A DNA stretch of 64,000 bases from Escherichia phage HMD-6: sequence record PQ505080.1; one strand, given 5' to 3'. Of the stretch, positions 58,230-58,560 are shown in pieces. Within the stretch, counting starts at the first letter, position 1; every line of letters begins with the position of its first letter. The notes beneath the pieces were generated by a model. It was not told where the DNA came from. It searched no databases and saw only the letters and a list, made by a program, of their open reading frames with translations. The position numbers and the translations under genes were made by a program.

Positions 58230-58560
58230 TGGGTAGTGTCGGCCCTTCATTGGCACTCGCCTACGAGGGGCGAGATGCCGGGCCTCCATAGTGCACACAA
58301 TGACAGAAGTGCATACATGCAGGCCTGTTAACATGTGTGGGAGCGAAGCGATAGCGCAGGCCAAAGGCCGAGCACTAATGTGGACCACCGACGAAAGCTT
58401 GCCAGCGCCGGAAGGAGTCGGTTGAGAGCCTCCCGCGCGAGTTCGGATAAAGTTTATGTGTGGAAACTGACAAGAAGGCCCCTAAATCGCTCCACAGCTA
58501 TATAAACTATACCAAGTAAGGCAATCGCACCAGTTCGATAGAAAAGCTCGTTACAAAGCG
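58230..58560. ncRNA. GC-rich structured island, candidate ncRNA (function unknown)
   Basis: Locally high GC, nested complementary segments (CTCGCC..GGCGAG, GGCCC..GGGCC), no ORF. Confidence 0.3.

Follow-up and report, generated by a model that had tools for sequence, protein, structure and literature searches.

Iteron-type origins of plasmids such as RK2 (oriV) and pPS10 carry a GC-rich segment beside an AT-rich tract. A second group of origin-linked elements, the single-strand initiation signals, comprises ssiA and ssiB of the IncQ plasmid RSF1010, the G-site of R1 and the phiX174-type and G4-type signals, and is also represented near ColE1-type origins. These signals fold only after unwinding, and it is a primase or primosome specific to the replicon or phage that recognises them. 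Their length is 40-140 nt, with one to three hairpins, and those of IncQ are essential and located on opposite strands. Structured non-coding transcripts of several hundred nucleotides beside origins are known from ColE1 (RNA II) and phage T4 (the R-loop RNA of oriF and oriG), whereas cos of P4 and P2 and, in the ICP1 system, the PLE origin with its RepA iterons are cis sites shared by a satellite and its helper. Here, we describe a GC-rich hairpin module of 345 bp at positions 58236-58580 of a 64,000-nt stretch of Escherichia phage HMD-6 (record PQ505080.1), which is called the window throughout and derives from an rV5-like phage (genus Vequintavirus). The parts of this locus stand in the same order as those of RK2 oriV and pPS10. 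The module is a real, conserved, non-coding element under selection. Our best explanation, which we hold tentatively, is that it constitutes a cluster of hairpins that acts in cis, in single-stranded DNA, as an accessory to an iteron origin.

A conserved non-coding element beside a putative origin

The original prediction had marked positions 58230-58560 as a GC-rich island. With a GC content of 0.538, compared to a window mean of 0.426 (standard deviation 0.031, 331-nt windows), this proved correct. Just 0.08% of the 331-nt windows reach or exceed the island value, which is a joint maximum with 6001-6482, and the island directly follows a 133-bp tract with a GC content of 0.19. Its ends had been placed less well. 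The conserved module spans 58236-58580 and extends about 20 nt further 3′ than claimed, where it reaches the ribosome-binding site of the gene starting at 58600. It is present in one copy per phage genome and is not dispersed.

A total of 118 phage records match the 801 bases around the module, with 91-99% identity; all are rV5-like E. coli myoviruses, although some of these records name other hosts. Searching for relatives through the flanking proteins gave matches to the 116-aa (amino acid) and 192-aa proteins within this genus exclusively. Sensitive blastn searches of complete E. coli genomes and plasmids returned partial module matches only in circular "plasmids" of 13.2-13.7 kb, which appear to be satellites of rV5-like phages and are described below. 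A host origin of the GC-rich DNA was rejected, as there was no chromosomal E. coli match beside these 13-kb plasmids.

Evidence for selection comes from a divergent rV5-like phage, IMGVR_UViG_3300010279_000001 (L080), whose origin unit lies at 1319-1900. The Rep-like protein encoded there is a different one (27% identity, 143 aa), and the place equivalent to the iterons is taken by five GATACATATTTGCATCAGAT-like units of 20 bp that are unrelated to them. The module, in contrast, is 83% identical, compared to 60-77% at the four-fold degenerate sites of three flanking genes, and is therefore under purifying selection. The L080 locus thus represents a modular exchange of origin specificity in which flanking genes and module were kept. 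The same layout of iterons, AT-rich tract and module recurs with at least three unrelated iteron sets across phages and satellites, and the satellites carry at least four different iteron families beside the same core. As judged from these comparisons, the module is the constant partner of an exchangeable pair of initiator and iterons.

Open reading frames (ORFs) within the island do not exceed 56 aa. The 79 variable columns in 13 distinct phage copies are distributed 23/31/25 over the codon positions without three-base periodicity, and one-base indels occur in three of the 13 copies. The claim that the island contains no credible reading frame is thereby upheld, and the module is non-coding despite the ORFs of 96 nt and 171 nt that BASEL and RefSeq records annotate inside it. 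These annotations, along with a genuine group I intron 4 kb away, are what small proteins of 31 and 56 aa or a degenerate intron could invoke as an explanation of the island. We consider either extremely improbable. The protein-coding reading was rejected on the grounds of the substitution pattern, the frameshifting indels and the loss of the frames in satellites. The degenerate intron-like element that had also been proposed did not survive: the Rfam group I model finds 62809-63087 and nothing at the module (E<10), no split gene surrounds it and the flanking ORFs are complete.

The origin next door consists of the following parts, given together with the module and the downstream gene:

57589-57939, + strand: Rep-like winged-helix protein of 116 aa, identified by matches to Pfam, PHROG and satellite Rep proteins and annotated as a replication initiator in rV5
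58005-58096, unstranded: four iterons found by repeat search, each with the palindrome GTCCGT-N4-ACGGAC
58097-58229, unstranded: AT-rich tract of 133 bp recognised by its composition (GC 0.19), the presumed DNA-unwinding element
58236-58580, + strand: GC-rich hairpin module of 345 bp, kept in 118 rV5-like records (91-99%) and with homologues in satellites
58600-59178, + strand: downstream gene encoding 192 aa, function unassigned, genus-restricted and non-essential in phage Bas54

Against Pfam, the 116-aa protein scored slightly below the cut-offs for HTH_36 (E=2.3e-5) and DUF6945 (E=4.7e-6). It matches the PHROG replication-initiation families 12838, 8102, 428 and 270, in each case only their N-terminal ~100 positions, and the N-termini of satellite Rep proteins (25-28% identity, E ~5e-5). 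The protein is the counterpart of the N-terminal DNA-binding domain only, without the C-terminal part of full-length initiators. As it is homologous to the N-terminus of satellite Rep, the whole unit is taken to be homologous in phage and satellite. The iterons are spaced by 21, 21 and 22 bp. An adjacent winged-helix initiator gene as well as at least three phased direct repeats followed by an AT-rich tract characterise an iteron-type (theta) origin, and all of these are present. Thus, the four iterons and the Rep-like gene bear out the putative origin claimed beside the island, and the locus 58000-58600 would be expected to fire as an origin. Resemblances to a DnaA box, boxA, a Xer site, a hammerhead and a T7 primase site were seen by eye and dropped, being too weak or unconserved across copies.

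Read along the transcribed strand, the rV5 RefSeq record has, one after the other, RNA ligase (divergent), polynucleotide kinase, phosphoesterase, gp075 and the island. Gp075, the counterpart of the 116-aa protein, is labelled "replication initiation protein". On the 3′ side follow gp073 (192 aa) and small ORFs, a tRNA cluster with spanins and the intron-containing terminase large subunit, which places the terminase operon about 4 kb downstream of the module. This order agrees with the tRNAs and the group I intron located by Rfam in the window. The phage rV5 has a T7-like polymerase and primase-helicase of its own. Directly 5′ of the origin unit, the window contains an RNA-repair-type cassette of RNA ligase, P-loop polynucleotide kinase and metallophosphoesterase (55533-57541), a few kb from the tRNA cluster (60477-61286). 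The group I intron (81 bits) occupies the region where rV5 has its terminase large-subunit gene, which is in three parts and also contains an HNH endonuclease ORF.

Hairpins of the module as RNA or DNA

Compared to dinucleotide shuffles, the module folds with z-scores of -1.10 (+ strand) and -1.74 (- strand) as RNA, and of -1.52 (+ strand) and -2.23 (- strand) as DNA. Since this is barely better than the shuffles, energy alone does not establish structure. Of the nested complementary segments that the original prediction had reported, specific hairpins with compensatory changes stand up, whereas the overall folding energy is only marginal. The elements of the module are:

58241-58245 with 58280-58284, + strand: helix P1, which encloses H1a
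58252-58261 with 58269-58279, + strand: hairpin H1a, with a conserved bulged A at 58275 and a 7-nt loop
58291-58314, + strand: variable hairpin GTGCAC...GTGCAT, from the alignment and the minimum free energy (MFE) structure
58334-58343, + strand: TGTGTGGGAG motif, which separates hairpin cassettes in satellites and is a possible long-range partner of CTCCCGCGCG
58343-58349, + strand: triloop hairpin GCGAAGC (GCAAAGC in L080), from sequence and alignment
58359-58369, + strand: triloop hairpin GGCC-AAA-GGCC, from sequence and alignment
58387-58392 with 58417-58422, + strand: hairpin H5, a 6-bp stem with the 24-nt loop GAAAGCTTGCCAGCGCCGGAAGGA, from covariation with satellites
58430-58439, + strand: CTCCCGCGCG, conserved in phages and most satellites
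58479-58487, + strand: CCCCTAAAT motif of the 3′ domain, common to satellites
58538-58579, + strand: 3′ hairpin ATAGAAAA...TTTTTCTAT, directly 5′ of the ribosome-binding site of the next gene

The 15 pairs of P1/H1a are 100% paired in seven distinct sequences, compared to 35-48% in slid controls, and satellite L002 has two pairs changed on both sides (G-C to U-A twice). Likewise, the six pairs of H5 are 100% paired in 13 distinct sequences (slid controls 0-51%), a score that none of 500 shuffles matched. Three of these six pairs are changed on both sides, from ACCGAC/GTCGGT in phages to GCTGCC/GGCAGC in satellites. The 24-nt loop is identical between the window and type I satellites. These patterns suggest that P1/H1a and H5 are selected hairpins, retained through compensatory changes. 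Covariation, the absence of which in related phages had been named as grounds for dismissing the island, is thus present by way of the satellites and weak within the phages, which are 91-99% identical. The 3′ hairpin is nearly invariant, L080 included, and its satellite counterpart CTCTAAATCG-CGTTAGAAT-CGATTTTAGAG has a similar loop on a different stem. Two phages have lost the top 18 nt of the variable hairpin, leaving the palindrome TGCA-CACA-TGCA.

Global MFE and alifold folds of the module are not supported. In alifold models of the 13 phage copies, 20-23 variable predicted pairs break and 10-12 are kept, and the structure conservation index is 0.73 on one strand and 0.74 on the other. A generic scan of the window for three consecutive hairpins found 13 compared to 8-17 in shuffles; as there is no enrichment, the three-hairpin cassettes of satellites (see below) are not a phage feature.

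According to one alternative, the module is active as a structured RNA, as the intercistronic or leader stretch of 660 nt in the early + strand transcript, and the satellites would have copied it. We regard this as unlikely, yet as a serious contender. Such an RNA could serve processing, stability or translation control of the flanking genes, act as an origin transcript (primer or R-loop), or offer a protein-binding or decoy site to phage or host. In the phage, the stretch from the promoter at 57525 to 59054 contains neither a consensus promoter nor a consensus terminator, and none was found beside the module on either strand. Thus, the module is co-transcribed with the Rep-like and 192-aa genes, with which the rV5 RefSeq promoters agree. 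The outer pair of H5 runs through the series A-U, G-U and G-C, in which the G-U belongs to the + strand. RNA hairpins recognised by protein or RNA typically combine a conserved loop, here of 24 nt, with a covarying stem, and a near-invariant 3′ hairpin beside a ribosome-binding site would also suit an RNA. Moreover, TGTGTGGGAG and CTCCCGCGCG are paired in the MFE structure by means of three G-U wobbles, so that this pairing could form only in RNA and only on the + strand. Elsewhere invariant, the putative long-range pair is changed on both sides in L080, from GGGAG/CUCCC to GGAAGA/UCUUCC, which would preserve it.

The other properties of the module fit an RNA less well. Neither strand is statistically favoured in the phage alignment, be it by structure conservation index, kept and broken pairs or alifold energy, and an index equal on both strands, about twice as many variable pairs broken as kept and weak folding z-scores all argue against an RNA. 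A scan of 58230-58580 against the covariance models of Rfam 15, the check that had been suggested, matched no family at gathering score or at E<10, and the satellites likewise gave nothing. The sole overlapping low match, rli43 (20.8 bits, cut-off 100), lies mostly on the AT-rich tract and is due to chance. Furthermore, the insertions tolerated within the module by the Vequintavirus Bas54 (see below) count against an RNA. The covarying stems read as almost wholly Watson-Crick, nearly without G-U pairs, and the loops are mostly of 3-4 nt (TAC, GAA, CAT, TTC, AAA). Stems of this kind with short loops look more like DNA palindromes, and GCGAAGC (58343-58349) is a classic, unusually stable DNA mini-hairpin. 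It is therefore somewhat more likely that the hairpins are active as DNA rather than as RNA. A promoter and terminator of its own, as an independent non-coding RNA gene would possess, were found neither in the phage nor in the satellites. Hence, what remains of the structured or origin-related RNA proposed for the island is a conserved, origin-linked non-coding element with selected hairpins, whereas activity as RNA is unsupported by Rfam, promoter and terminator or strand asymmetry.

The octamer TGTGTGGG has 10 sites in the window, compared to 2.2 expected, and none of 100 shuffles reached 10. The sites include 16575, 17006, 17791, 21841, 21986, 29270, 57466 and 58334, and the motif is found 5′ of every satellite hairpin cassette.

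The module in putative plasmid-borne satellites

The 13-kb elements (about 13.2-13.9 kb with all records included) appear to be plasmid-borne satellites of rV5-like phages and to form an undescribed family. Against 72,556 plasmids, blastn with 11-nt words retrieved them and one phage-like record only. The satellite records are L006 (NZ_CP020521.1), L003, L007-L010, L099, L102 and L115-L117; one satellite was assembled as a 39.6-kb trimer. They were present in seven of 5,426 complete E. coli genomes, always extrachromosomal, and two more were retrieved from metagenomes, the gut being among the metagenome sources. GTDB representative genomes contained none. When GTDB genomes and metagenomes were scanned for the H5 loop pattern, the true matches were rV5-like phages and satellites only, and integrated copies were absent. 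In IMG/VR, a 19-mer found one true and one chance match, a three-block pattern none and a looser two-block pattern 69 chance matches, many of them inside DnaB-like genes of GC-rich phages.

Satellites encode a winged-helix Rep of 260-305 aa along with a major capsid protein (PHROG 29) and a tape-measure protein. Two further proteins have homologues in rV5, one in gp048 (50% identity) and the other, a tail-completion protein, in gp056 (45% identity); no terminase, portal, sheath or polymerase is annotated. The homologues of gp048 and gp056 and the lack of an annotated terminase suggest a dependence of the satellites on rV5-like phages. A single large region of the satellite sequence is non-coding and contains, in this order, iteron families, a short AT-rich stretch, a hairpin string, promoters, and small ORFs with the Rep gene. 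Hence, the 13-kb episomes share their origin design with rV5-like phages. The hairpin string is 300-600 nt long, GC-rich and partly homologous to the phage island. Its promoters are of the strong sigma-70 type and lie downstream of the module. On the + strand, no promoter was found 5′ of the satellite module, and the sole terminator-like hairpins there are on the - strand. An arrangement with promoters 3′ of the module and terminators facing the opposite way is a further argument against a structured RNA.

Homology between phage and satellite modules is mosaic. The 5′ part with P1/H1a is common to satellite L002, and the middle to seven satellites. The 3′ domain can be aligned in all of them and comprises CCCCTAAAT, GCAAT(C/T)GCA and the terminal hairpin with the loop CGTTA(C/G)AA. 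In four satellites, called type II, a different 8-bp hairpin replaces H5. Cassettes A-E are present or absent in many combinations, each behind the same 8-11-nt motif, and the three-hairpin cassettes occur in both orientations, which favours hairpins of DNA over an RNA.

This pattern would be expected of functionless palindromic cassettes that turn over by template switching or recombination at TGTGTGGG repeats and are moved between helper and satellites at homologous origin modules. Apart from the shuffled cassettes, such a reading draws on the mosaic sharing, with P1/H1a in one satellite lineage only and two types of H5, and on a module that is missing from sister genera and dispensable in Bas54. 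Templated mutation can create near-perfect palindromes in one step and would thereby mimic compensatory change. We nevertheless judge the absence of function to be quite unlikely. The module is clearly more conserved than the synonymous sites of its neighbours, it is kept in all 118 rV5-like records and it is single-copy in the phage genome. Junk would not be expected to conserve the bulge and loop sequences of H1a and H5 or to keep the 3′ hairpin invariant.

Nucleotide matches between helper and satellites are few: the module, a palindromic segment of about 50 nt and, within or close to the tape-measure gene, short stretches. That so little besides the module is shared, and that the satellites have no annotated terminase, would suit a recognition site for helper and satellite (a pac signal or the binding site of a helper regulator, without which the satellite would not be packaged or induced) or a stretch of mutual interference, for instance by complementary transcripts meeting at the 24-nt loop. 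The position about 4 kb upstream of the terminase operon and the H5 loop that is identical although the stem differs point in the same direction, and the left edge of the satellite module has terminator-like hairpins on the - strand that would be compatible with an antisense transcript. However, a unique pac site would be essential in cis, and nine of the 11 TA sites in the module bear insertions in viable Bas54; H5 has no TA site and is hence outside this insertion test. The shared loop is not universal, given the different H5 hairpin and loop of the four type II satellites. Known pac sites are duplex protein-binding repeats rather than covarying hairpins. Moreover, better pac candidates lie closer to the terminase genes, namely a second GC-rich island and a small protein that is essential. 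Taken together, a recognition or interference site is decidedly unlikely.

The second GC-rich island (59750-59985, GC ~0.54) has no ORF or Rfam match, and a promoter-like site lies upstream at 59687-59715. Just downstream, 60039-60380 encodes a 113-aa protein (PHROG 3330, function unassigned), which is Essential in Bas54 with insertions at one of 20 TA sites. By their location upstream of the block of tRNA, spanin and terminase genes, this island and the 113-aa gene are a candidate small terminase or pac region.

More broadly, the module could be an interface between rV5-like lytic phages and plasmid-borne satellites, either for plugging into helper functions or for mutual conflict, an idea we consider rather unlikely. 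The satellite may load the T7-like primase-helicase of the helper or bind a helper protein at the 24-nt H5 loop, and conflict may take the form of complementary transcripts pairing at this loop. The truncated Rep-like/iteron/hairpin unit of the phage would then be the source of the satellite origin, or a satellite origin captured as a decoy. If true, the cis element would be of a new kind and the helper-satellite pair a new system in E. coli. Should the module engage replication or packaging proteins of the helper, it would reveal, at the molecular level, the exploitation of a strictly lytic phage by a plasmid-like satellite, and give a handle to measure or block it.

The palindromic segment shared by helper and satellite contains GGTGACCtGGTCACC. 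It connects the large intergenic region of the phage (window 16174-16220, rV5 105688-105736) with the Rep coding sequence of the satellite (L006, 10886-10934) at 80-90% identity. This intergenic region (15390-17805) covers 2.4 kb between divergent gene blocks without ORFs of at least 70 aa, and is dense in repeats, which are direct (16270-16390), long and inverted (16040-16160) or G-rich. It is probably the insertion-free intergenic region of about 2 kb reported for Bas54. Sequences resembling the Fur-box consensus (e.g. GATAATGATAATCGTTCTCATT and AATGATAATAATTCTCATTGACA) are found at early promoter regions of the phage (~5985-6005, ~6125-6145 and ~16765-16915) and overlap the main satellite promoters (e.g. 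L003 ~1785-1810), which hints at iron- or Fur-dependent control. Two Fur-box-like sites belong to the non-coding region 5700-6370, which also contains tandem CGATCTGTTTTTCGTTT units and GC-rich segments with repeated ACCTGGCGGGGC motifs and ties with the module as the most GC-rich stretch of the window.

Proposed accessory hairpins of an iteron origin and similar known systems

The reading that we prefer, accessory hairpins acting in single-stranded DNA, implies the following course of events. The initiator would bind the iterons and melt the AT-rich tract, whereupon the DNA alongside would turn single-stranded. P1/H1a, H5 and the small triloop hairpins could then form in the exposed strand, and, once folded, the hairpins would offer a component of the replisome a place to land or to start priming, in the manner of plasmid single-strand initiation signals. 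A primase or helicase would be the component to recognise them. P1/H1a and H5 lie 10-190 bp from the AT-rich tract, and these conserved stem-loops are on the strand that origin opening would expose. Initiator and iterons would be the replicon-specific, swappable part, and the hairpins the part common to rV5-like helpers and the dependent ~13-kb satellites. A satellite that encodes neither polymerase nor helicase could borrow those of rV5, which would explain a common module beside private initiators. With truncated initiator, iterons, unwinding tract and conserved hairpin cluster, the locus presents a concrete, testable origin for rV5-like phages, which are in wide use in E. coli phage therapy and biocontrol.

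Several observations weigh against accessory origin hairpins. Compensatory changes amount to about one split between phage and satellite per hairpin, so that the evidence from covariation is real but thin. The island is inside an early + strand transcription unit of the phage, so an RNA copy is certain to exist. Blastn finds no similarity to plasmid regions other than the satellites, and hence none to known priming signals, which the module resembles in layout only. Furthermore, Mydovirus has a homologous small Rep-like gene and adjacent AT-rich intergenic sequence without a GC-rich module, and Seunavirus, as read from its annotation only, has a Rep-like gene and probably no such module. This origin type therefore does not require the module.

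A further observation comes from the published HIDEN-SEQ transposon map of Bas54. Two ORFs in it were equated with those of the island because, as in Bas59, they agree with them in gene order and in their lengths of 96 and 171 nt. Insertions were present at all five TA sites of bas54_0214 (mean 135 reads) and at four of the six of bas54_0215 (mean 78 reads), and neighbouring genes had about 140 reads (10.1101/2025.11.20.689424, Extended Data Tables). In contrast, the Rep-like gene with 13.6 reads and the iteron-region ORF with 18.1 reads were depleted about 10-fold, which was not lethal (10.1101/2025.11.20.689424). The intact 345-nt module is thus dispensable for lytic growth on K-12, whereas the initiator/iteron part matters for fitness.

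Literature searches on rV5 satellites, origins and transcriptomes found no account of the module or of the satellites. In the literature searched, the overall architecture has precedents, while the module itself is without a published description and without an Rfam family. Iteron origins in which an AT-rich tract adjoins a GC-rich tract have been described (PMC9499019). Those of iteron plasmids (pMOL98/PromA, cited in PMC9499019) resemble the phage locus in the order of initiator gene, direct repeats, AT-rich tract and GC-rich stretch. Their GC-rich segments measure about 30-70 bp, whereas the module comprises 345 bp with conserved hairpins and is common to a lytic phage and its satellites. 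Like the module, single-strand initiation signals are stem-loops within a few hundred bp of an origin opened by an initiator and are accessory to duplex opening. They differ from it in sequence, as no similarity was found, and in size, and priming by the 345-bp module is putative. ColE1 RNA II and T4 oriF/oriG are further removed: they have neither iterons nor Rep and their RNA enters the start site, whereas the module is downstream of the unwinding tract and without a promoter of its own. The systems P4/P2 and PLE/ICP1 provide the parallel for the satellites, which there bear a short non-coding stretch matching the helper, or an iteron origin of their own that uses helper replication proteins. 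In the present case the shared site is a hairpin cluster by the origin rather than cos, and the helper itself carries the homologous unit of Rep-like gene, iterons and hairpins.

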